This document shows, piece after piece, positions 7,456 to 53,452 of a stretch of DNA of 64,000 bases. The notes beneath the pieces are model-generated. The model ran no database searches. It saw only the letters and a program-made list of their open reading frames with translations, and was not told the DNA's origin. Location: the NCBI RefSeq assembly GCF_041886205.1, contig NZ_CP169029.1, one strand, 5' to 3'. Each line of letters begins with the position of its first letter. Within the stretch, counting starts at the first letter, position 1. This stretch comes from Escherichia coli (lineage in GTDB: Bacteria; Pseudomonadota; Gammaproteobacteria; Enterobacterales; Enterobacteriaceae). Both the position numbers and the translations under genes were made by a program.

Positions 7456-7543
7456 GGAAGTGTGGCCGAGCGGTTGAAGGCACCGGTCTTGAAAACCGGC
7501 GACCCGAAAGGGTTCCAGAGTTCGAATCTCTGCGCTTCCGCCA
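7456..7543 (+). tRNA. serT: tRNA-Ser (anticodon UGA), 88 nt, with encoded CCA end
   Basis: Sequence GGAAGTGTGGCCGAGCGGTTGAAGGCACCGGTCTTGAAAACCGGCGACCCGAAAGGGTTCCAGAGTTCGAATCTCTGCGCTTCCGCCA read directly; long variable arm typical of a class II tRNA. Confidence 0.95.
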
Positions 7544-9198: not shown

Positions 9199-10389
9199 AT
9201 GAGTGTACGTTTAGTGTTAGCCAAAGGGCGCGAAAAATCATTACTTCGTCGCCATCCGTGGGTCTTTTCCGGGGCCGTTGCCCGCATGGAAGGTAAAGCC
9301 AGCCTCGGTGAAACCATCGATATTGTTGATCATCAGGGAAAATGGTTAGCACGCGGCGCTTATTCGCCAGCTTCGCAAATCCGGGCGCGCGTCTGGACGT
9401 TTGACCCGTCTGAGTCTATCGACATTGCTTTTTTTTCCCGCCGTTTGCAACAGGCACAAAAATGGCGTGACTGGCTGGCGCAAAAAGATGGCCTCGACAG
9501 CTATCGTTTAATCGCCGGAGAATCTGATGGCCTGCCGGGTATTACTATCGATCGTTTCGGTAATTTTCTGGTGCTGCAACTGCTGAGTGCTGGCGCAGAG
9601 TATCAGCGCGCGGCATTAATTAGCGCCCTGCAAACGCTTTACCCGGAATGTGCGATTTACGATCGCAGCGATGTTGCGGTACGTAAAAAAGAAGGGATGG
9701 AGCTGACCCAGGGCCTCGTCACCGGCGAGTTGCCACCTGCCCTGCTGCCGATTGAAGAACACGGCATGAAGCTGCTGGTGGATATTCAGCACGGACACAA
9801 AACGGGCTACTACCTGGACCAGCGAGACAGCCGCCTGGCTACCCGCCGCTACGTTGAAAATAAACGTGTGCTGAACTGTTTCTCCTATACCGGTGGTTTC
9901 TCCGTATCGGCACTGATGGGCGGTTGCAGCCAGGTTGTCAGCGTTGATACCTCCCAGGAAGCGCTGGATATTGCACGGCAGAACGTTGAGCTGAACAAAC
10001 TGGATCTGAGCAAGGCTGAGTTTGTCCGTGATGATGTCTTTAAATTGCTGCGTACTTATCGCGATCGCGGTGAAAAATTTGACGTTATCGTGATGGACCC
10101 GCCGAAGTTTGTTGAGAATAAAAGCCAGTTGATGGGCGCGTGTCGTGGCTATAAAGACATCAACATGCTGGCGATTCAGCTGCTGAATGAAGGCGGTATT
10201 CTCCTGACTTTCTCCTGTTCCGGTCTGATGACCAGCGATTTATTTCAGAAAATCATCGCGGATGCCGCAATTGATGCCGGTCGTGATGTACAATTTATAG
10301 AGCAGTTCCGTCAGGCAGCCGATCATCCGGTGATCGCTACCTACCCGGAAGGGCTATATCTGAAAGGGTTTGCCTGTCGCGTCATGTAA
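9199..10389 (+). CDS. rlmI: 23S rRNA m5C1962 methyltransferase RlmI (396 aa)
   Basis: Track [30 protein letters not shown]... matches RlmI (YccW). Confidence 0.93.
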
Positions 10390-15275: not shown

Positions 15276-17438
15276 ATGGCCTTTATGCTAAGTCCTTTGC
15301 TCAAACGCTATACCTGGAACAGCGCCTGGCTGTATTACGCGCGTATTTTTATTGCGCTTTGTGGAACCACAGCGTTTCCGTGGTGGCTGGGTGATGTAAA
15401 ACTGACGATTCCGCTAACGCTGGGGATGGTGGCAGCGGCGCTGACCGATCTCGATGACCGACTGGCGGGACGTTTGCGTAACCTCATCATTACGCTGTTC
15501 TGCTTTTTTATCGCCTCGGCCTCAGTAGAATTGCTGTTTCCCTGGCCCTGGCTATTTGCGATTGGCTTAACGCTCTCTACCAGCGGCTTCATTTTGCTCG
15601 GCGGTCTGGGTCAACGCTATGCAACAATTGCCTTCGGTGCATTGCTGATCGCCATTTACACTATGTTGGGAACATCACTTTATGAGCACTGGTATCAGCA
15701 GCCGATGTATCTGCTGGCCGGTGCCGTCTGGTACAACGTCCTGACACTTATTGGTCATCTGCTGTTCCCGGTCCGCCCGCTGCAGGACAACCTGGCGCGT
15801 TGCTATGAACAACTGGCGCGTTATCTTGAGCTCAAGTCGCGCATGTTTGATCCTGATATTGAAGATGAAAGCCAGGCACCGCTGTACGATTTGGCTCTCG
15901 CCAACGGACAGCTGATGGCGACATTGAATCAGACGAAACTCTCGCTGCTGACCCGCTTACGTGGCGATCGTGGTCAACGGGGAACGCGTCGCACGCTGCA
16001 TTATTACTTTGTCGCGCAGGATATTCACGAGCGTGCCAGCTCTTCTCATATTCAGTATCAAACATTGCGTGAACATTTTCGCCACAGCGACGTGCTGTTC
16101 CGTTTTCAGCGGCTGATGTCGATGCAGGGCCAGGCGTGCCAGCAACTGTCACGCTGTATTTTGCTGCGTCAGCCTTATCAACATGATCCGCATTTTGAGC
16201 GCGCTTTTACGCATATTGATGCTGCCCTGGAGCGGATGCGCGATAACGGCGCGCCTGCCGATTTACTCAAAACACTAGGATTTTTGCTGAACAATTTACG
16301 CGCCATTGATGCCCAACTGGCAACAATTGAATCAGAACAGGCCCAGGCACTACCCCATAATAATGACGAAAATGAGCTCGCTGATGACAGCCCGCACGGA
16401 TTGAGTGATATCTGGCTGCGTCTTAGCCGTCACTTCACGCCGGAGTCCGCCCTCTTCCGTCATGCGGTTAGAATGTCGCTGGTGTTGTGTTTCGGCTACG
16501 CCATCATTCAGATAACCGGAATGCATCACGGGTATTGGATCTTGCTGACAAGTTTGTTTGTCTGCCAGCCAAACTATAACGCCACGCGCCACCGCCTGAA
16601 GTTAAGGATTATTGGTACGCTGGTAGGTATCGCCATTGGCATTCCTGTGCTGTGGTTTGTACCGTCACTGGAAGGGCAGCTGGTGCTACTGGTTATTACC
16701 GGCGTGCTCTTTTTTGCCTTCCGTAACGTGCAATATGCCCATGCAACGATGTTCATCACACTTTTGGTGCTACTGTGTTTTAACTTGCTGGGTGAAGGTT
16801 TTGAAGTAGCGTTACCTCGCGTAATCGATACGCTGATTGGTTGTGCCATTGCGTGGGCGGCAGTGAGCTACATCTGGCCTGACTGGCGGTTTCGCAATCT
16901 GCCGCGCATGCTCGAACGCGCCACCGAGGCCAACTGTCGGTATCTCGATGCCATACTGGAGCAATACCATCAGGGGCGTGATAACCGTCTGGCGTATCGT
17001 ATTGCCCGCCGCGATGCACACAACCGTGATGCTGAGCTGGCGTCGGTGGTATCAAACATGTCCAGCGAACCGAACGTTACCCCGCAAATTCGAGAGGCCG
17101 CGTTTCGGTTACTGTGCCTTAACCATACGTTTACCAGCTATATCTCAGCCCTCGGTGCTCACCGGGAGCAGTTAACTAATCCTGAAATTCTGGCGTTTCT
17201 TGATGACGCAGTTTGCTATGTTGATGACGCGTTACATCATCAACCTGCTGATGAAAAACGCGTCAATCAGGCATTAGCTGGCCTGAAACAGCGGATGCAG
17301 CAACTTGAACCACGGGCAGACAGCAAAGAACCTCTGGTCGTACAACAAGTTGGGTTATTGATTGCATTACTGCCTGAGATTGGTCGTCTGCAACGCCAGA
17401 TTACTCAAGTTCCGCAGGAAACTCCTGTTTCGGCGTAA
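15276..17438 (+). CDS. yccS: Inner membrane protein YccS (FUSC-like, about 717-720 aa); alternative start at 15285
   Basis: Track ORF MAFMLSPLLKRYTWNSAWLYYARIF...; I recall the reference product starting MLSPLL (ATG 15285). Begins 10 nt after the yccF stop, so likely co-transcribed. Confidence 0.88.
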   Translation: MAFMLSPLLKRYTWNSAWLYYARIFIALCGTTAFPWWLGDVKLTIPLTLGMVAAALTDLDDRLAGRLRNLIITLFCFFIASASVELLFPWPWLFAIGLTLSTSGFILLGGLGQRYATIAFGALLIAIYTMLGTSLYEHWYQQPMYLLAGAVWYNVLTLIGHLLFPVRPLQDNLARCYEQLARYLELKSRMFDPDIEDESQAPLYDLALANGQLMATLNQTKLSLLTRLRGDRGQRGTRRTLHYYFVAQDIHERASSSHIQYQTLREHFRHSDVLFRFQRLMSMQGQACQQLSRCILLRQPYQHDPHFERAFTHIDAALERMRDNGAPADLLKTLGFLLNNLRAIDAQLATIESEQAQALPHNNDENELADDSPHGLSDIWLRLSRHFTPESALFRHAVRMSLVLCFGYAIIQITGMHHGYWILLTSLFVCQPNYNATRHRLKLRIIGTLVGIAIGIPVLWFVPSLEGQLVLLVITGVLFFAFRNVQYAHATMFITLLVLLCFNLLGEGFEVALPRVIDTLIGCAIAWAAVSYIWPDWRFRNLPRMLERATEANCRYLDAILEQYHQGRDNRLAYRIARRDAHNRDAELASVVSNMSSEPNVTPQIREAAFRLLCLNHTFTSYISALGAHREQLTNPEILAFLDDAVCYVDDALHHQPADEKRVNQALAGLKQRMQQLEPRADSKEPLVVQQVGLLIALLPEIGRLQRQITQVPQETPVSA

Positions 17439-18030
17439 GAGAGTCAGCCCATTCTGCTAGCTCCTGGCGGCGTGCCACCGGGAGCGCAGCTTCATGAATC
17501 CCGATAATGGCACCTTCAAGCATAAACAGAATCTTTTCTGTCACCAGACTGTTTTGCTGCCGCAGTCGCAACCAACACATTTTTGCCCCAAGTATACGTA
17601 ACGCCCGTACATCCTTAATCCCCACCTCCCCGAGAATCGCTTCCAGATGAAAAGACATATTGGGCAAATCTTTCAGTCTTTCCCGGGTATTGCGCGTGCT
17701 TTTCTCTTTCAGCGCTGCATCGAGAGAATATTTCGACAGACGCACCAGCTTCAGTTGATTTCGCCATAGACTTTCATCAACCCGATAGTAATTGAGGGTA
17801 ACGGATCGGCCACACTTTTTATATGTCAGCCAGACAGGCGGATGTTTTACACAGTACTGTGCACTTTGCTCACAAGCCCGAAGATACAACTCACCATCAG
17901 AAACCATCGCAAACACCGTGTCGTCAACGGTCAGGCTGTAACTACCAAACAATGATCGGTATTCAATTGTGCCCAACGTTGCCAGGTATTCTTGTGATTT
18001 ATAGATCCGCTTATAGGAGAGGTTTTTCAT
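17401..18030 (-). CDS. sxy: Competence regulator Sxy/TfoX (209 aa)
   Basis: Track ORF MKNLSYKRIYKSQEYLATLGTIEYRSLFGSYSLTVDD... matches Sxy; 3' end overlaps the yccS 3' end by 38 nt. Confidence 0.92.
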   Translation of the reverse strand: MKNLSYKRIYKSQEYLATLGTIEYRSLFGSYSLTVDDTVFAMVSDGELYLRACEQSAQYCVKHPPVWLTYKKCGRSVTLNYYRVDESLWRNQLKLVRLSKYSLDAALKEKSTRNTRERLKDLPNMSFHLEAILGEVGIKDVRALRILGAKMCWLRLRQQNSLVTEKILFMLEGAIIGIHEAALPVARRQELAEWADSLTPKQEFPAELE

Positions 18031-18758: not shown

Positions 18759-18981
18759 GTAAATTTAGGATTAATCCTGGAACTTTTTTTGTCGCCCAGC
18801 CAATGCTTTCAGTCGTGACTAATTTTCCTTGCGGAGGCTTGTCTGAAGCGGTTTCCGCGATTTTCTTCTGTAAATTGTCGCTGACAAAAAAGATTAAACA
18901 TACCTTATACAAGACTTTTTTTTCATATGCCTGACGGAGTTCACACTTGTAAGTTTTCAACTACGTTGTAGACTTTACATC

Positions 18982-19114
18982 GCCAGGGGTGCTCGGCATA
19001 AGCCGAAGATATCGGTAGAGTTAATATTGAGCAGATCCCCCGGTGAAGGATTTAACCGTGTTATCTCGTTGGAGATATTCATGGCGTATTTTGGATGATA
19101 ACGAGGCGCAAAAA
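18982..19114 (+). promoter_or_regulatory. ompA 133-nt 5' untranslated leader (target of sRNA MicA and Hfq)
   Basis: Sequence GCCAGGGGTGCTCGGCATAAGCCGAAGATATCGG... to the ATG matches the known long ompA leader. The track ORF starting at 19043 is an in-frame upstream extension inside this leader, not a coding start. Confidence 0.8.
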
Positions 19115-20167
19115 ATGAAAAAGACAGCTATCGCGATTGCAGTGGCACTGGCTGGTTTCGCTACCGTAGCGCAGGCCGCTCCGAAAGATAACACCTGGTA
19201 CACTGGTGCTAAACTGGGCTGGTCCCAGTACCATGACACTGGTTTTATTCCTAACAATGGTCCGACCCACGAAAACCAACTGGGTGCAGGTGCTTTTGGT
19301 GGTTACCAGGTTAACCCGTATGTTGGTTTTGAAATGGGTTACGACTGGTTAGGTCGTATGCCGTACAAAGGCGACAACATCAACGGTGCATACAAAGCTC
19401 AGGGCGTTCAACTGACCGCTAAACTGGGTTACCCAATCACTGACGATCTGGACGTATACACTCGTCTGGGTGGTATGGTATGGCGTGCAGACACCAAGGC
19501 TAACGTACCTGGTGGCGCATCCTTTAAAGACCACGACACTGGCGTTTCTCCGGTTTTCGCAGGTGGTGTTGAGTACGCGATCACTCCTGAAATCGCTACC
19601 CGTCTGGAATACCAGTGGACCAACAACATCGGTGACGCAAACACCATCGGTACTCGTCCGGACAACGGTCTGCTGAGCCTGGGTGTTTCCTACCGTTTCG
19701 GTCAGGGCGAAGCAGCTCCGGTAGTTGCTCCGGCTCCAGCTCCGGCACCGGAAGTACAGACCAAGCACTTCACTCTGAAGTCTGACGTTCTGTTCAACTT
19801 CAACAAAGCAACCCTGAAACCGGAAGGTCAGGCTGCTCTGGATCAGCTGTACAGCCAGCTGAGCAACCTGGATCCGAAAGACGGTTCCGTAGTTGTTCTG
19901 GGTTACACTGACCGCATCGGTTCTGACGCTTACAACCAGGGTCTGTCCGAGCGCCGTGCTCAGTCTGTTGTTGATTACCTGATCTCCAAAGGTATCCCGG
20001 CAGACAAGATCTCCGCACGTGGTATGGGCGAATCCAACCCGGTTACTGGCAACACCTGTGACAACGTGAAACAGCGTGCTGCACTGATAGACTGCCTGGC
20101 TCCGGATCGTCGCGTAGAGATCGAAGTTAAAGGCATCAAAGACGTTGTAACTCAGCCGCAGGCTTAA
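19115..20167 (+). CDS. ompA: Outer membrane protein A precursor (350 aa here; non-K-12 loop allele)
   Basis: Starts at [30 protein letters not shown]-terminal OmpA domain present. Loop segments read [10 protein letters not shown] and [15 protein letters not shown], unlike the K-12 form I recall. Confidence 0.95.
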
Positions 20168-20182: not shown

Positions 20183-20211
20183 AAAAACCCCGCAGCTGCG
20201 GGGTTTTTTTT
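20183..20211. terminator. Bidirectional intrinsic terminator between convergent ompA and matP
   Basis: A-tract, stem CCCCGCAG / CTGCGGGG, then T8. Confidence 0.85.
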
Positions 20212-33401: not shown

Positions 33402-34412
33402 TTAGATATGGGTAACGATTTCTTTAATCAGCGGCGGACCTTTAAAAATAAAACCAGAATAAATTTGCACCAGTGAGGCACCCGCAGCAATCTTTTCACG
33501 CGCAGCGATAACCGAGTCGATGCCGCCAACCCCGATGATCGGTAAGCGACCGTTTAATTCCAGTGACAAGCGGCGAATAATTTCGGTGCTTTTTAACTGA
33601 AGCGGACGACCACTTAAGCCACCGGTTTGATCGCAATTTTTCATTCCCTGAACCAGAGAACGATCGAGTGTGGTATTGGTTGCAATAACGCCATCAATAT
33701 TATGGCGAACTAAACTATCGGCAACCTGGATCAATTCGTCTTCAGAAAGATCCGGCGCGATCTTCACTGCGATCGGCACATATTTATGGTGCATCGCTTG
33801 CAAATCATTTTGCTTATTTTTAATCGCGGTTAAGAGATCATCCAGCGCTTCACCATATTGCAGCGTGCGTAATCCTGGGGTATTCGGCGATGAAATATTG
33901 ATGGCGATATATCCCGCATAGGCATAGATTTTTTCCATACAAATCAGATAGTCATCTTTTCCCTGCTCCACTGGCGTATCTTTATTTTTGCCGATATTAA
34001 TACCCAGGACGCCGTCATAATGGGCCTTTTTTACGTTCTCTACGAGGTTATCAACGCCAAGATTATTAAAGCCCATACGGTTGATCAAACCTTCGGCATC
34101 TACCAGACGAAAGAGACGCGGCTTGTCATTACCTGGCTGTGGACGTGGCGTGACGGTACCGATCTCGATCGATCCAAATCCCATCGCGCCTAACGCATCA
34201 ATGCACTCCCCGTCTTTATCAAGACCGGCTGCCAGACCAAGCGGATTTTTAAACGTCAGGCCCATGCAGTTAACAGGTTTCGCAGGCACTTTCTGCCGCA
34301 CCAGTGCTTCAAACGGCGTTCCAGTAATGCGGCGTAATTGCTGAAAAGTAAACTCATGAGCGCGCTCTGGATCGAGCTGGAAAAGGGCTTTACGAACGAA
34401 GGGGTAGTACAT
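33402..34412 (-). CDS. pyrD: Dihydroorotate dehydrogenase (quinone), PyrD (336 aa)
   Basis: Track ORF 33402..34439; the known product starts at [28 protein letters not shown] (ATG at 34412). Confidence 0.95.
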
Positions 34413-34498
34413 GAACTCTCCTGGATTCCCGGTGTGCAAACCGGGGGCGTATTATGTGCGAGTTCGGACCAAAAGGGAATTGACCTGCGGCAAAAAAA

Positions 34499-35747: not shown

Positions 35748-36290
35748 TCACTGGTAAACCAGATCAAAATAGAGAACCGCCGTCGCATTACCGCCCGTTG
35801 CTCCCGCCTTTGTGGACTTATAACGAAGTTGATATTTGAGTGTGTTATCCCCGGCTTTTAAGGGCGTAAGAGGCTGGACCTGATTGAGCGGGATTTCTTG
35901 CTGAGTTTGCGCATCAAGAATTTGTACGGCAATCCCCGTTGCCATACCACCGCTTCCGCCTGTGTCAGTTAGTTTGAGCAGTGTCGGCGCAAGGGTGTCA
36001 GCCTCGCCGCTAAAAAGGACGTCCGCGCCAGTAATACCAGCGGCACAACCGGTAATATCGATATTCAAATCAGCAGCAGTGCTTACGGTATTCGCGGCCT
36101 GAAAATCACTGATATTAAAATCACCAATATGAATATTTTGTAATGCACTTTTGGTGGCGACATCACAGCCCTGATCGACCACATTACCATAAATATGCAT
36201 ACTCACTTGTTCAGGCCCAGCCATCCCGATATGGATGTTAAGAAGGCTAAAGAACAAAATAACGCACTGATATATCATTTTTTTCTTCAT
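35748..36290 (-). CDS. ycbU: Fimbrial-like subunit YcbU (180 aa)
   Basis: Track ORF MKKKMIYQCVILFFSLLNIHIGMAGPEQV..., signal peptide plus pilin-like C-terminus. Confidence 0.88.
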   Translation of the reverse strand: MKKKMIYQCVILFFSLLNIHIGMAGPEQVSMHIYGNVVDQGCDVATKSALQNIHIGDFNISDFQAANTVSTAADLNIDITGCAAGITGADVLFSGEADTLAPTLLKLTDTGGSGGMATGIAVQILDAQTQQEIPLNQVQPLTPLKAGDNTLKYQLRYKSTKAGATGGNATAVLYFDLVYQ

Positions 36291-36301
36291 ACGTTCACGC
36301 G

Positions 36302-39963
<3,662 letters not shown>

Positions 39964-39987
39964 CTCGCTCTCTTAACTGAAGACGGC

Positions 39988-40689
39988 TTACGATTTACAG
40001 TTGAGTTGCGGCGTTTCCGCCCCGTAGTCATTGATGGTTCGGTACGTCAGGCTGCTGTTTTTGGCACCCTTTGGCAGAGAGAATTGGTATTTATCAAAAG
40101 GGGAAATCATTTGATTTTTAACTACTTTCCCACCAATTTTCAGACCTGTCAGGGTAATGAAATAAGGTGTTGGGTTACTGACCGAAACCATGTCAGCTGA
40201 CGAAGTGCAACGTAGTTTTTCCGGAGCTTCATCTGGAGAATACGGCAAACCTTTTGGTCGCCAGAAAAGTTTAATGACGCTTTGCGTAGCAATCTTCAGG
40301 GTATTGCCCTCTTCCCGCTTCGTTGTTGAAGGGACCGCCCGTACGCTGGTGAAGAAAAGGGTTTCCCTGTCTTTCGCCAACGGCGCGCCAATATACATAA
40401 TGCGTAACAGATTCTCATTTGCTGGATTCAGCACAAATAGCGGCGGTGTAATAATAAAGTCCGCTGACTTTTTATTATCTGGTGTCATCACCCATGACTG
40501 AATAAGATAAGGAACATCCGGACTGGTGTTACGCACACCCAGTGAAATTTGCTCTTCACCTTCCGAATAAACAAGGCGCGTTGCAGCAAGTCCAACCCCA
40601 CCGTTGCCTGCCGCCCATGCGGACGAACAGCTTAGCAATATTGCCGTTAAACTTACGGTCACAATTCCCTTTGTTATGCAAGTTCTCAT
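39988..40689 (-). CDS. elfD: Fimbrial periplasmic chaperone ElfD (YcbR), 233 aa
   Basis: Track ORF MRTCITKGIVTVSLTAILLSCSSAWAAGNGGVGLAATRLVYSEGEEQISLGVRN..., PapD-like chaperone. Confidence 0.9.
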   Translation of the reverse strand: MRTCITKGIVTVSLTAILLSCSSAWAAGNGGVGLAATRLVYSEGEEQISLGVRNTSPDVPYLIQSWVMTPDNKKSADFIITPPLFVLNPANENLLRIMYIGAPLAKDRETLFFTSVRAVPSTTKREEGNTLKIATQSVIKLFWRPKGLPYSPDEAPEKLRCTSSADMVSVSNPTPYFITLTGLKIGGKVVKNQMISPFDKYQFSLPKGAKNSSLTYRTINDYGAETPQLNCKS

Positions 40690-40772
40690 AAAAAATTACT
40701 CTTAGATAAATATAAACATCCCCTCTAATAAGTTTATTAAAGGGGGGATTAATGAATCGTTAAAAAATTTTA

Positions 40773-41315
40773 TCAATAATAGTTAATATGAAAATCTGTT
40801 ACTGCATTGACATTACCTGCTGTCGCTTTACCGGTAGCAATATAATCAACTTTAAAGGTCACTGTTTGCTCAGCAGAATCTGCTAACTGAATATTCGTGG
40901 TTTCAGTTCCAGGAGTCACCGTTGTTGACCCATCTGGCATATACAATTGTAGAGCAACATTCGTCGCTGCATCGGTGGAAGCTTGATTAGCAAATGCTGT
41001 AGGTTGCACACCATCAGCCGTACCACTGAAAGTAAAAGCAGCATTTTTAGTTACAGTAACATCACAATCTTCTAAAGCAATTGGTACATCAGTTTTAACG
41101 CCAGAGACTGCTCCATTACTTTGCAACTTCGTTGCACTGACATTTGGCAGTGTGACTACTGAATCTTTTGTCGCAGCAACTAACGTACAGGCTGGAGCAA
41201 TGACTTTACCATTAAACGTAACGGAGCCGTCCGTGATGGCATTATCATCGGCCGCCATAACGCTGGACGTTACACACACCACAGTGATAAAAGCCGTCAA
41301 TACACTTTTTTTCAT
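40773..41315 (-). CDS. elfA: Major fimbrial subunit ElfA (YcbQ), about 180 aa
   Basis: Track ORF 40773..41324; start taken at MKKSVLTAFITVVCVTSSVMAADD (41315). Confidence 0.88.
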   Translation of the reverse strand: MKKSVLTAFITVVCVTSSVMAADDNAITDGSVTFNGKVIAPACTLVAATKDSVVTLPNVSATKLQSNGAVSGVKTDVPIALEDCDVTVTKNAAFTFSGTADGVQPTAFANQASTDAATNVALQLYMPDGSTTVTPGTETTNIQLADSAEQTVTFKVDYIATGKATAGNVNAVTDFHINYY

Positions 41316-41670
41316 CGTTATCATCCTGATTTGTTCGTAAATATGATAATGTCTTCAAATGACATTGGACTTAATAATAGCAATAATTATCCGCCATTTA
41401 AATGAAGCATACGCAATCCAATAGGTTACAAATCTTTAAATTATTTATTTCATGAATATATATTTATTACCTGAACGAGTAATACATTGATTAAACATGA
41501 ATTGAACAGCAAATAAATAAATCCACGTGATATATATGTCTCAATCCTTAGTTCATTTTTAGAAAAAGATACACAAAATTTATATTTGGCATTTTCTTGT
41601 CTCTCCGACAGACTAACCGAATTGTTATCGATGTTAACAAAATAAGAACAATTGGTTATAAGGAGAGAAT

Positions 41671-42246
41671 ATGCGTGTCATCACCCTAGCGGGTAGTCCT
41701 CGCTTTCCTTCTCGCTCCAGCTCCTTGCTGGAATATGCGCGGGAAAAACTGAATGGCCTGGATGTAGAGGTTTATCACTGGAATCTGCAAAACTTTGCCC
41801 CGGAAGATCTGCTCTATGCCCGTTTCGATAGTCCGGCGCTAAAAACTTTCACCGAACAGCTGCAAGAGGCTGATGGACTGATAGTCGCTACGCCTGTGTA
41901 TAAAGCCGCCTATTCCGGGGCGCTTAAAACCCTGCTCGACCTGCTGCCGGAACGCGCTTTGCAAGGCAAAGTGGTGCTGCCGCTGGCGACGGGCGGCACG
42001 GTGGCTCATCTGCTGGCGGTTGATTACGCACTTAAACCGGTGTTAAGCGCCCTGAAAGCCCAGGAGATCCTGCACGGCGTATTTGCCGATAACTCACAAG
42101 TCATTGATTACCATCACAGACCCCAGTTCACGCCAAATCTGCAAACCCGTCTTGATGCTGCGCTCGACACCTTCTGGCAAGCGCTGCACCGCCGTGATGT
42201 TCAGGTTCCTGACCTTTTTTCTCTGCGAGGTAATGTCCATGCGTAA
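41671..42246 (+). CDS. ssuE: NADPH-dependent FMN reductase SsuE (191 aa)
   Basis: Track ORF MRVITLAGSPRFPSRSSSLLEYAREKLNGL...; AAGGAGAG Shine-Dalgarno 4 nt upstream. Confidence 0.93.
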   Translation: MRVITLAGSPRFPSRSSSLLEYAREKLNGLDVEVYHWNLQNFAPEDLLYARFDSPALKTFTEQLQEADGLIVATPVYKAAYSGALKTLLDLLPERALQGKVVLPLATGGTVAHLLAVDYALKPVLSALKAQEILHGVFADNSQVIDYHHRPQFTPNLQTRLDAALDTFWQALHRRDVQVPDLFSLRGNVHA

Positions 42247-43198
42247 CATCATTAAACTGGCGCTGGCGGGATTACTTAGCGTCTCTACACTCGCGGTTGC
42301 CGCAGAGTCTTCGCCAGAGGCGTTAAGGATTGGCTATCAGAAAAGCAACATCAGTTCAGTACTGGCGAAAAATTACCAAATGCTGGAAAAACGTTATCCG
42401 CAAACAAAAATCTCCTGGGTGGAGTTTCCCGCTGGCCCGCAGATGCTGGAGGCGTTAAACGTTGGCAGTATTGATCTCGGCAGTACCGGGGATATTCCGC
42501 CAATCTTTGCCCAGGCTGCCGGGGCTGATTTGGTATACGTGGGCGTCGAGCCGCCGAAGCCAAAAGCCGAAGTGATTCTGGTAGCAGAAAACAGCCCGAT
42601 CAAAACCGTAGCCGATCTTAAAGGCCACAAAGTTGCCTTTCAGAAAGGTTCCAGTTCACACAACCTTTTACTGCGTGCACTGCGTCAGGCCGGACTTAAG
42701 TTTACCGATATACAACCCACTTACCTGACACCCGCTGATGCCCGCGCCGCGTTCCAGCAAGGTAACGTTGACGCCTGGGCTATCTGGGATCCCTACTACT
42801 CCGCTGCATTATTACAGGGCGGCGTGCGGGTGTTGAAAGACGGCACCGATCTCAATCAAACCGGATCGTTTTATCTGGCAACTCGCCCCTATGCAGAAAA
42901 AAACGGCGCTTTTATTCAGGGCGTACTGGCAACCTTTAGTGAGGCCGATGCGTTAACCCGCAGCCAGCGCGAGCAAAGCATCGCTTTACTGGCAAAAACG
43001 ATGGGCTTACCGGCACCGGTGATTGCCTCTTACTTAGATCATCGCCCTCCTACCACCATCAAACCGGTTAACGCCGAGGTTGCCGCCTTACAGCAGCAAA
43101 CGGCAGATCTGTTTTATGAAAACCGACTGGTGCCGAAAAAAGTCGATATCCGCCAGCGCATCTGGCAGCCCACTCAACTGGAAGGAAAACAATCATGA
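42239..43198 (+). CDS. ssuA: Aliphatic sulfonate periplasmic binding protein SsuA (319 aa)
   Basis: Track ORF 42083..43198; the known product starts at [25 protein letters not shown] (ATG at 42239), overlapping the ssuE stop by 8 nt. Confidence 0.92.
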
Positions 43199-45909: not shown

Positions 45910-46100
45910 TGCCGGATGTGCCGCACAAAACCAGCAGTTTCAACGGATTGTAGGCCTGATAAGACGCGTCAAGCGTCGCATCAGGCATTTGGGCACGGCT
46001 GCCGGATGCGGCGTGAACGCCTTATCCAGCCTACAAAACCAGCATTTTCAACGGACTTGTAGGCCTGATAAGACGCGTCAAGCGTCGCATCCGGCATTTT
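45910..46100. repeat. REP/BIME cluster: two ~66-nt direct repeats (45927..45992 and 46035..46100) with an inverted REP-like copy between them
   Basis: Repeated motif TGTAGGCCTGATAAGACGCGTCAAGCGTCGCATC(A/C)GGCA and inverted GCCGGATGCGGCGTGAACGCCTTATCCAGCCTACA, the canonical E. coli REP palindrome family, between convergent ssuB and pepN. Confidence 0.9.
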
Positions 46101-52363: not shown

Positions 52364-53452
52364 ATGATGAAGCGCAATATTCTGGCAGTGATCGTCCCTG
52401 CTCTGTTAGTAGCAGGTACTGCAAACGCTGCAGAAATCTATAACAAAGATGGCAACAAAGTAGATCTGTACGGTAAAGCTGTCGGTCTGCATTATTTTTC
52501 TAAAGACAATGGTGTAAACAGTTACGGCGGAAACGGCGACAAAACTTATGCCCGTCTTGGTTTTAAAGGGGAAACACAAATCAATTCCGATCTGACCGGT
52601 TATGGTCAGTGGGAATATAACTTCCAGGGTAACAACTCTGAAGGCGCTGACGCTCAAACTGGTAACAAAACGCGTCTGGCATTCGCGGGTCTTAAATACG
52701 CTGACATTGGTTCTTTCGATTACGGCCGTAACTACGGTGTGGTTTATGATGCACTGGGTTACACCGATATGCTGCCAGAATTTGGTGGTGATACTGCATA
52801 CAGCGATGACTTCTTCGTTGGTCGTGTTGGCGGCGTTGCTACCTATCGTAACTCCAACTTCTTTGGTCTGGTTGATGGCCTGAACTTCGCTGTTCAGTAC
52901 CTGGGTAAAAACGAGCGTGACACTGCACGCCGCTCTAACGGCGACGGTGTTGGCGGTTCTATCAGCTACGAATACGAAGGCTTTGGTATCGTTGGTGCTT
53001 ATGGTGCAGCTGACCGTACCAACCTGCAAGAAGCTCAACCTCTTGGCAACGGTAAAAAAGCTGAACAGTGGGCTACTGGTCTGAAGTACGACGCGAACAA
53101 CATCTACCTGGCAGCGAACTACGGTGAAACCCGTAACGCTACGCCGATCACTAATAAATTTACAAACACCAGCGGCTTCGCCAACAAAACGCAAGACGTT
53201 CTGTTAGTTGCGCAATACCAGTTCGATTTCGGTCTGCGTCCGTCCATCGCTTACACCAAATCTAAAGCGAAAGACGTAGAAGGTATCGGTGATGTTGATC
53301 TGGTGAACTACTTTGAAGTGGGCGCAACCTACTACTTCAACAAAAACATGTCCACCTATGTTGACTACATCATCAACCAGATCGATTCTGACAACAAACT
53401 GGGCGTAGGTTCAGACGACACCGTTGCTGTGGGTATCGTTTACCAGTTCTAA
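52364..53452 (+). CDS. ompF: Outer membrane porin OmpF precursor (362 aa)
   Basis: Track [48 protein letters not shown]... ending in the C-terminal Phe; a few substitutions relative to the K-12 sequence I recall. Confidence 0.95.

Follow-up and report, generated by a model that had tools for sequence, protein, structure and literature searches.

The window, the whole stretch of 64,000 nucleotides of Escherichia coli DNA that was analysed, contains an ompA gene that encodes an OmpA with long surface loops. We consider it very probable that this is the chromosomal ompA of a strain close to LHM10-1, that it carries a common and previously described long-loop allele, and that the part encoding the loops is the haplotype of an old, recombining block. 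The long-loop allele itself is already known, as ompA2 (2006), as pattern II alpha (2017 and 2022) and as OmpA-long (2025). The preliminary description of the window had presented the gene as a non-K-12 surface-loop allele that marks a distinct lineage and a different receptor specificity.

OmpA is an abundant outer-membrane barrel tethered to peptidoglycan. The protein encoded in the window is an ordinary OmpA, with a signal peptide, an eight-stranded barrel, four surface loops, a linker and a peptidoglycan-binding domain. The gene, its segments and its borders are located as follows:

18759..19114, plus strand: sulA-ompA intergenic region.
19115..20167, plus strand: ompA coding sequence, 350 codons and a stop codon, from the open reading frame and its translation; pattern (II, alpha), the same as ompA2 and OmpA-long.
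19115..19245, plus strand: 5' coding segment with the signal peptide (codons 1-21) and the first strand; invariant.
19246..19670, plus strand: divergent haplotype block of 425 nt (gene nt 132-556), which holds every amino-acid difference from K-12.
19671..20167, plus strand: last barrel strand, proline-rich linker and periplasmic peptidoglycan-binding domain; K-12 ('alpha') type.
20183..20211: bidirectional intrinsic terminator serving ompA (plus strand) and matP (minus strand), with the order A5, CCCCGCAGCTGCGGGG, T8, found by reading and folding the sequence.

The protein has 350 residues against 346 in K-12, as had been claimed; our K-12 reference was the ompA of MG1655 (NC_000913, L001:3014-4054, minus strand, 346 aa). 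BLASTP aligned the two proteins with 336 identities in 350 positions and one gap of four residues. Pfam placed OmpA_membrane (PF01389) at residues 23-199 (264.8 bits, cut-off 21) and OmpA (PF00691) at residues 226-321 (85.4 bits, cut-off 27.2), with a proline-rich linker between barrel and C-terminal domain. An eight-stranded barrel domain, seen both by Pfam and in an AlphaFold (AF2) model, thus precedes the linker and a periplasmic OmpA-family domain, the arrangement of OmpA. The barrel matched PDB entries 9FZD, 1BXW and 1QJP with E-values from 1e-105 to 1e-120. The AF2 barrel model was made from 35 enterobacterial barrels and has a mean pLDDT of 71, with loops of low confidence, as expected; its strands span mature residues 6-18, 32-44, 49-60, 74-86, 91-104, 122-134, 139-151 and 165-174. 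In its signal peptide, its proline-rich linker and its entire C-terminal domain, the protein does not deviate from K-12 at any residue.

The gene lies between sulA and matP, the position of the K-12 orthologue, and the order sxy, sulA, ompA, matP, ycbZ is shared with MG1655 and 12 other genomes. The 356-nt region upstream differs from K-12 at a single nucleotide (position 18863) and from O26:H11 at none; this intergenic region we take, from what is known of K-12, to carry the ompA promoter and a long 5' UTR. RNA folding of the terminator at 20183-20211 gave -22.5 kcal/mol (z = -3.7). A scan for consensus promoters and terminators returned matches at chance level only and missed the ompA/matP terminator. 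Strain LHM10-1, isolated from pig faeces in China, carries a 100% identical gene that is annotated as 'porin OmpA' (WP_000750419.1), and the exact protein corresponds to UniRef Q49P72_ECOLX / WP_000750419.1.

Other loci of the window also showed sequence variation. At roughly 36-43 kb, the elf fimbrial operon and ssuE are present in a rare haplotype, diverged by about 9-10%. The source strain is one of a small group that share it, about 10 complete genomes (wlxctx60, CP52E, LHM10-1, 6EVA, XJ5.2 and others), and no complete genome has this region at intermediate identity; a look-up of protein clusters for a donor of the elf haplotype gave only proteins labelled E. coli. In ompF, three substitutions are clustered at residues 48-60.

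The amino-acid differences between the window OmpA and K-12 OmpA fall at the following sites:

19232..19270, plus strand: loop 1, mature residues 19-31, a non-strand segment of the AF2 model; N25P at codon 46 (nt 19250-19252).
19358..19396, plus strand: loop 2, mature residues 61-73; codons 87-89 (nt 19373-19381) encode DNI in place of SVE66-68.
19454..19456, plus strand: I93V at codon 114 in strand beta-5, a conservative change.
19490..19540, plus strand: loop 3, mature residues 105-121; SNVYGKN replaced by an 11-residue sequence at codons 129-139 (nt 19499-19531).
19631..19669, plus strand: loop 4, mature residues 152-164; codon 176 (nt 19640-19642) has N for H, at mature residue 155, which is 151 in K-12.
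19670..19672, plus strand: codon 186, where strand beta-8 starts; M of K-12 (mature residue 161 there) is replaced by L, as seen in the codon table, the alignment and the AF2 model.

The changed residues 25, 66-68, 108-118 and 155 of the mature protein map to the four long non-strand segments of the AF2 model, and only V93 and L165 lie in strands, both as conservative changes. Liao 2017 places these changes in the same loops. In loop 2 the window reads KGDNING against KGSVENG in K-12 (K-12 stretch KGSVENGAYKAQ), and G70 is conserved. The loop 3 region differs from ADTKSNVYGKNHDTG of K-12 (longer K-12 context TKSNVYGKNHDTG), the replacement occupying mature residues 108-118 and being four residues longer than in K-12. 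In loop 4, G158 (K-12 G154) is conserved. All four loops therefore differ from the K-12 type, that is pattern I or OmpA-short, which is defined by N25, SVE66-68, SNVYGKN and H in loop 4. The preliminary description was right in this respect: the differences from K-12 in the loops are real, identity across them was not seen, both of the replacements it had quoted for loops 2 and 3 are present against the SVENG and SNVYGKN stretches of K-12, and so are FIPNNGP (N46P), DDLDVY (I114V) and DANTIG (N for H at residue 176, which is 172 in K-12). Its placing of the changes in extracellular loops agrees with the mapping to the model. Every substitution that it listed exists, but the list was incomplete, as it omitted NGLLSLG in place of NGMLSLG at residue 186.

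We compared this set of residues with the OmpA classes in the literature. According to later papers, Power et al. 2006 (Appl Environ Microbiol 72:7930) named ompA2 from the bird isolate B194. By these accounts, Power 2006 detected ompA2 by PCR in 43% of 524 isolates, in association with phylogroup and source, and the allele-specific primer was aimed at a long loop 3, ANVPGGA(S)F/Y, which replaces SNVYG. With its long loop 3 at mature residues 108-118, the window OmpA belongs to this ompA2 or OmpA-long class. The loop set that Liao 2017 gives for B194 equals that of the window, and no difference at the level of the loops was found; the exact protein of the window carries a UniProt accession of the 2005 era, Q49P72.

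A finer classification, that of Liao 2017, defines pattern II by P25, DNI66-68, an 11-residue loop 3 and N in loop 4, and reports it in 20.5% of environmental isolates; pattern III has the same features except for H in loop 4, and the C-terminal type alpha has A175, N203 and G251 in K-12 mature numbering. All four loop features of pattern II are present in the window OmpA, and A, N and G are found at its positions 179, 207 and 255, as in type alpha. The diagnostic residue of loop 4, labelled 149 by Liao, is mature residue 151 of K-12 by our count. The window agrees with pattern (II, alpha) at every classified position (P25, DNI66-68, loop 3, loop-4 N, Y129, L161, A175, N203 and G251). It differs from the cloned exemplar of pattern II, strain 57, which has I93 where the window has V93, at a position outside the classification of Liao. 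Nothing that we observed speaks against the identification as this allele.

[quoted passage not shown] That structure belongs to pattern III, with I93, M161 and an H in loop 4, whereas the window has V, L and N at these sites. K-12 OmpA (pattern I, alpha; OmpA-short; 1BXW, 1QJP and 9FZC) shares the signal peptide, strands, linker and C-terminal domain with the window protein and is distinguished from it by N25P, SVE to DNI, I93V, SNVYGKN to the longer loop 3, H151N and M161L. Sorgenfrei et al. 2025 (PMC12259851) describe two main clusters, OmpA-short and OmpA-long, in the OmpA of about 85,000 E. coli genomes, and solved both barrels in complex with isoform-specific nanobodies.

Long-loop alleles are frequent. 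A 56-mer from loop 3 (19489-19544) occurred in 2,060 of 5,426 complete E. coli genomes (38%), and since it shares no 28-mer with K-12, it matches long-type alleles only. This is near the frequencies of 43% and 41% published for the long allele. The whole gene was at least 99% identical in 952 of the 5,426 complete genomes, and the exact protein is found on at least 1,000 public contigs.

Faulty sequencing or assembly of a K-12-like gene was considered as the origin of the differences and rejected, and we give this no probability at all: the frame is intact, the 12-nt indel is in frame, the independent complete genome of LHM10-1 has a 100% identical gene and 952 genomes one of at least 99% identity, and the loop set is seen in a crystal structure.

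The idea of a distinct lineage is true of the allele only in a loose sense. In Liao 2022, 91% of the (II, alpha) isolates belong to phylogroup B1, which supports it insofar as the subtype is enriched in one phylogroup; the same paper equates (II, alpha) with pattern F2 of Nielsen et al. 2020, enriched in avian pathogenic E. coli. It is overstated insofar as the long class is present in 38% of complete genomes and both classes occur on the same flanks. The literature, as the source of this assignment, suggests phylogroup B1 for the source strain; the flanks of the gene, about 99% identical to K-12 (A), O26 (B1) and O157 (E) alike, do not discriminate between phylogroups.

The differences from K-12 are concentrated in one part of the gene. 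Of the 42 substitutions, 38 lie in the block of gene nt 132-556, together with the 12-nt indel, which amounts to a difference of 9.2%; there are none in nt 1-131 and four, all synonymous, in nt 557-1053 (0.8%). The clustering is significant (Fisher p = 3e-12). Estimates of dS, which are noisy over about 100 synonymous sites owing to the strong codon bias of ompA, were 0.28 in the block (dN/dS 0.18) and 0.033 downstream for the window against K-12, 0.19 and 0.13 against E. albertii, 0.30 and 0.27 against C. amalonaticus, and 0.39 and 0.36 against S. arizonae. Within the block, the silent-site distance between the window and K-12 is as large as that between Escherichia and Citrobacter.

The 5' segment behaves differently from the block. 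The sequence at 19115..19245 is the same in K-12, in all of the 12 other E. coli genomes and also in C. amalonaticus AUH, Salmonella arizonae and the Citrobacter HRGM MAG, and the remaining species have only 1-2 differences. Even in comparison with Salmonella, the first 131 nt of ompA have no synonymous change.

We compared the sequence around the gene (ompA and 8 kb on either side) with K-12 and 12 further complete genomes, 13 in all. Six of these strains are of the short type (K-12, D4, O157:H7, O26:H11, FDA1267 and UTME-3) and seven of the long type (LHM10-1, EC416, GF4-3, Z0117, AZ146, ST131 and N3). The flanks of all 13 genomes are 98.2-99.4% identical to the window, and those of the short-allele strains K-12, O157:H7 and O26:H11 are 98.9-99.4% identical. 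Identity in the block is bimodal, 88.5-90.8% in short-type and 95-100% in long-type strains. Both allele classes are found on B2-like and non-B2 flanks alike; ST131 (long, pattern III) and FDA1267 (short, pattern IV), for example, have near-identical B2-type flanks and C-terminal segments.

Trees of the two parts of the gene give different groupings. They were p-distance neighbour-joining (NJ) trees of 16 sequences, on which the argument about age and selection is based, and several of their deep nodes have bootstrap values below 60%. The block tree separates the E. coli alleles into two deep clades. Bootstrap support is 99% for the short one, and E. albertii is nested in the long one, where it joins E. 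coli N3 at 83%. In the tree of the 3' segment, the E. coli alleles stand together with E. albertii outside (node below 60%), and ST131 and FDA1267 pair at 100%. The discordance between the trees of the block and of the 3' segment points to an old haplotype dimorphism that has been redistributed by homologous recombination.

Related loops are found in other species. We scanned one genome per bacterial species and kept the 80 loci that came closest to the long-type query. Loops 2, 3 and 4 are identical to those of the window in Citrobacter amalonaticus AUH and C. sedlakii, loops 2 and 3 in E. albertii, and the loops of Salmonella arizonae (S. enterica subsp. arizonae) are near-identical. The OmpA proteins of E. 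albertii, C. amalonaticus, C. sedlakii and S. arizonae all have 350 residues, DNI in loop 2 and a long loop 3, and those of the Citrobacter species have N in loop 4, as in the window. Loop 1 is different, as the relatives have N or D there and not P, with the exception of S. arizonae. At the DNA level, the relatives differ from the window by 4.7-8.7% in the block and by 3-11% in the C-terminal part. Going by these 80 loci, the view of the window allele as the unusual one must be turned around: the long form is common to E. albertii, Citrobacter and Salmonella, and it is the short loops of K-12 that are odd.

The sharing of loops 2, 3 and 4 with the two Citrobacter species, the near-identity to S. 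arizonae and the confinement of the divergence to a single block with K-12-like sequence on both sides would also be expected if the source strain had recently imported the block from another genus such as Citrobacter or Salmonella, giving a one-off hybrid OmpA. We consider such a recent import extremely improbable. At the DNA level, the block shares only 91-93% identity with Citrobacter and Salmonella, compared with 95-100% with long-type E. coli and 95.3% with E. albertii, and the same loop-3 DNA is present in 2,060 of the 5,426 genomes, on differing flank backgrounds. Given how widespread the loop-3 DNA is, and given these distances, any import must have been ancient and not specific to this strain.

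Convergent adaptive substitutions in the loops, with no old haplotype in common, could in principle also explain why the loops resemble those of Salmonella and Citrobacter and depart from K-12. All amino-acid changes are in or adjoin loops, and the term 'convergent evolution' appears in the title of a paper on the OmpA of O78 (Gophna et al. 2004), which we know from the reference list of PMC5413513. Convergence is nevertheless very unlikely. Of the block's 38 substitutions, about 22 are silent and fall in strands between loops, and convergence of the protein predicts no linked synonymous divergence, whereas the block has a dS of 0.28 against 0.03 downstream with a dN/dS of 0.18. It would not nest E. 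albertii among the long alleles of E. coli either, and none of the seven long alleles examined had K-12-like synonymous sites in the block.

Our preferred explanation is that the 425-nt block encoding the loops is an old, separately evolving haplotype. In the window it is closest to the other long-type alleles of E. coli and to E. albertii, and the rest of the gene and the flanks are ordinary E. coli sequence. Such a pattern agrees with a long-standing two-allele polymorphism of the surface-exposed part of OmpA, moved between lineages by homologous recombination, and is at odds with recent mutation or recent import into the source strain. We infer that selection by phages or other ligands may have maintained the polymorphism. 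The allele would be expected to alter the binding of ligands and to leave the structural role of OmpA unchanged.

A more far-reaching version of this explanation is one that we put forward tentatively and with somewhat less than even confidence. The two barrel haplotypes would be a trans-species polymorphism that predates the split of E. coli and E. albertii and is kept at about 40:60 by frequency-dependent selection through phages, conjugative plasmids or antibodies; the long form would be ancestral to Escherichia, Citrobacter and Salmonella, and the short form of K-12 would be deep and possibly introgressed, with no sampled donor. Published work describes both isoforms and how they are distributed; in the parts consulted, it contains no such dating and no discordance between block and flanks.

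Alternatively, the long form could simply be the vertically inherited state of Escherichia, and the window allele ancestral, with the short form of K-12 coming from outside or having diverged fast before spreading by recombination. We regard this as possible, though on the doubtful side. E. albertii, Citrobacter and Salmonella are all of the long type, and SNVYGKN was found in none of the 80 loci, which were chosen, however, as those closest to a long-type query, so that a short-type donor could be missed among them. The dS between the window and E. albertii is 0.19 in the block, close to the 0.13 of the 3' segment, and the block of K-12 is 6-12% away from everything beyond its own clade. Within the short clade, the deep variants of patterns I, IV and V are as much as 6.5% apart, which argues for age and not for a recent arrival. 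An ancestral long form is compatible with the two-haplotype polymorphism that we prefer and does not exclude it.

The loops of OmpA are the contact surface for phage adhesins, colicins, TraN of the F plasmid and antibodies. On phages, Power 2006, as summarised in PMC9560509, reported a lower sensitivity of ompA2 strains to lysis. PMC12032242 describes eight natural OmpA variants cloned in MG1655 ΔompA, all of which are infected by phages with type-1 Gp38. Phages with type-2 Gp38 (FL12, FL18 and FL20) infect variants 1, 3 and 4 only, which have loop 2a together with loop 3a or 3b, and residue E89, the E of SVE, is placed in loop 2 of these three variants. From the presence of E89 in variants 1, 3 and 4 we infer that a window-like allele with DNI and the long loop 3 would be refractory to phages with type-2 Gp38. 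General resistance to phages would not follow from the allele, since phages with type-1 Gp38 infect all eight variants. Classical phage-resistance mutations affect residues 25, 70, 110 and 154 (PMC12032242). In the window, residue 25 is changed and G70, V110 and G154 are kept, each at most three residues from a change.

Other ligands also distinguish the loops. As described in PMC12259851, the nanobodies Nb01 and Nb39 separate OmpA-short from OmpA-long absolutely, and the isoform-specific nanobodies contact all four loops of OmpA. The single loop-4 substitution G154D has been reported to block mating through F TraN-gamma and infection by some phages. It is conceivable that the allele of the window affects F conjugation. 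A different receptor specificity, as had been proposed for the window allele, is thus plausible in the light of the published work on the allele classes. Attachment to corn stover was equal among the OmpA forms compared in Liao 2017, so that many phenotypes are unaffected.

As a discovery, the allele carries little weight: it has received three names since 2006, its crystal structure is known and about 40% of E. coli carry it. What our analysis adds is modest, namely a quantified depth of the block, its discordance with the flanks and its sharing with E. albertii. For a given strain, the class of the ompA allele predicts which OmpA-dependent phages and nanobodies, and possibly which F-like plasmids, engage it. 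K-12 has the short loops, and receptor work based on K-12 therefore describes the majority short class and not the long class of about 40%. With a loop block as diverged among strains of E. coli as among genera, set in flanks of about 99% identity, ompA offers a clean case of an old surface-protein polymorphism shuffled by recombination.

The first 131 nt of ompA (window 19115-19245) showed no nucleotide difference from K-12 (MG1655), which carries the short-loop OmpA, or from 12 other complete E. coli genomes. The same segment is also identical in Citrobacter amalonaticus AUH, a Citrobacter MAG, and Salmonella arizonae, and it differs at only 1-2 positions in the other species compared. The remainder of the gene has a dS of 0.27-0.39 against Citrobacter and Salmonella. 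The segment contains about 31 synonymous sites, and because we found no silent change where about nine would be expected against Salmonella, the alignment suggests that strong constraint acts on the mRNA itself. Candidate sources of such a constraint would be the translation start, mRNA stability, or control by an sRNA.

Outside the window, we observed an ompA fragment at positions 635-978 of NZ_CP097216.1, a small plasmid (4,668 bp) from E. coli BE311, where it is annotated as 'outer membrane beta-barrel protein'. It matches nt 199-554 of the gene, roughly mature residues 46-164, with 89.3% identity, and its ends resemble those of the OmpA segment in Lpp-OmpA surface-display vectors.

OmpF, another phage and colicin receptor, is encoded in the window and was compared with its K-12 counterpart.

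52364-53452: ompF

The two proteins are identical at 358 of 362 residues. Of the four changes, G48D, E51V, and M60K form a cluster at residues 48, 51, and 60, close to surface loop 1, whereas V115I lies outside it.

Among the matches listed, the closest genome at ompA was that of E. coli LHM10-1, in which two genes are annotated as defective. Its sxy is described as frameshifted, with about 22 extra bases, and its rlmI as having an internal stop, whereas both open reading frames are intact in the window. The window is thus derived from a relative of the LHM10-1 record and not from that record. The defects in LHM10-1 may be assembly errors.

9199-10389: rlmI, intact
17401-18030: sxy, intact

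Searching the window for structured RNAs gave the following Rfam matches at the gathering score, all of which are ordinary for this chromosomal region.

7456-7540, + strand: tRNA, a tRNA-Ser by the LHM10-1 annotation
34407-34480, - strand: PyrD leader, upstream of pyrD
45953-46031, - strand: naRNA4 (REP-derived nucleoid-associated RNA), between ssuB and pepN

Across the compared stretch from 23 to 64 kb, the window is 97-100% identical to K-12 except in one region, where identity falls to 86-94% per kb.

36000-43000: divergent haplotype with elfG, elfC, elfD, an elfA-like major subunit gene, ssuE, and the start of ssuA
40773-41324: the elfA-like major subunit gene, within this haplotype

When 5,426 complete E. 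coli genomes were searched with window 36300-42300, just 10 matched with at least 99% identity, none with 95-99%, and the remainder reached at most about 91%. The elf-ssuE haplotype is rare and strongly divergent. For the exact ElfD and ElfG proteins, the contigs that bear an E. coli label number about 450-490. The elf-ssuE stretch looks like an import from outside mainstream E. coli.
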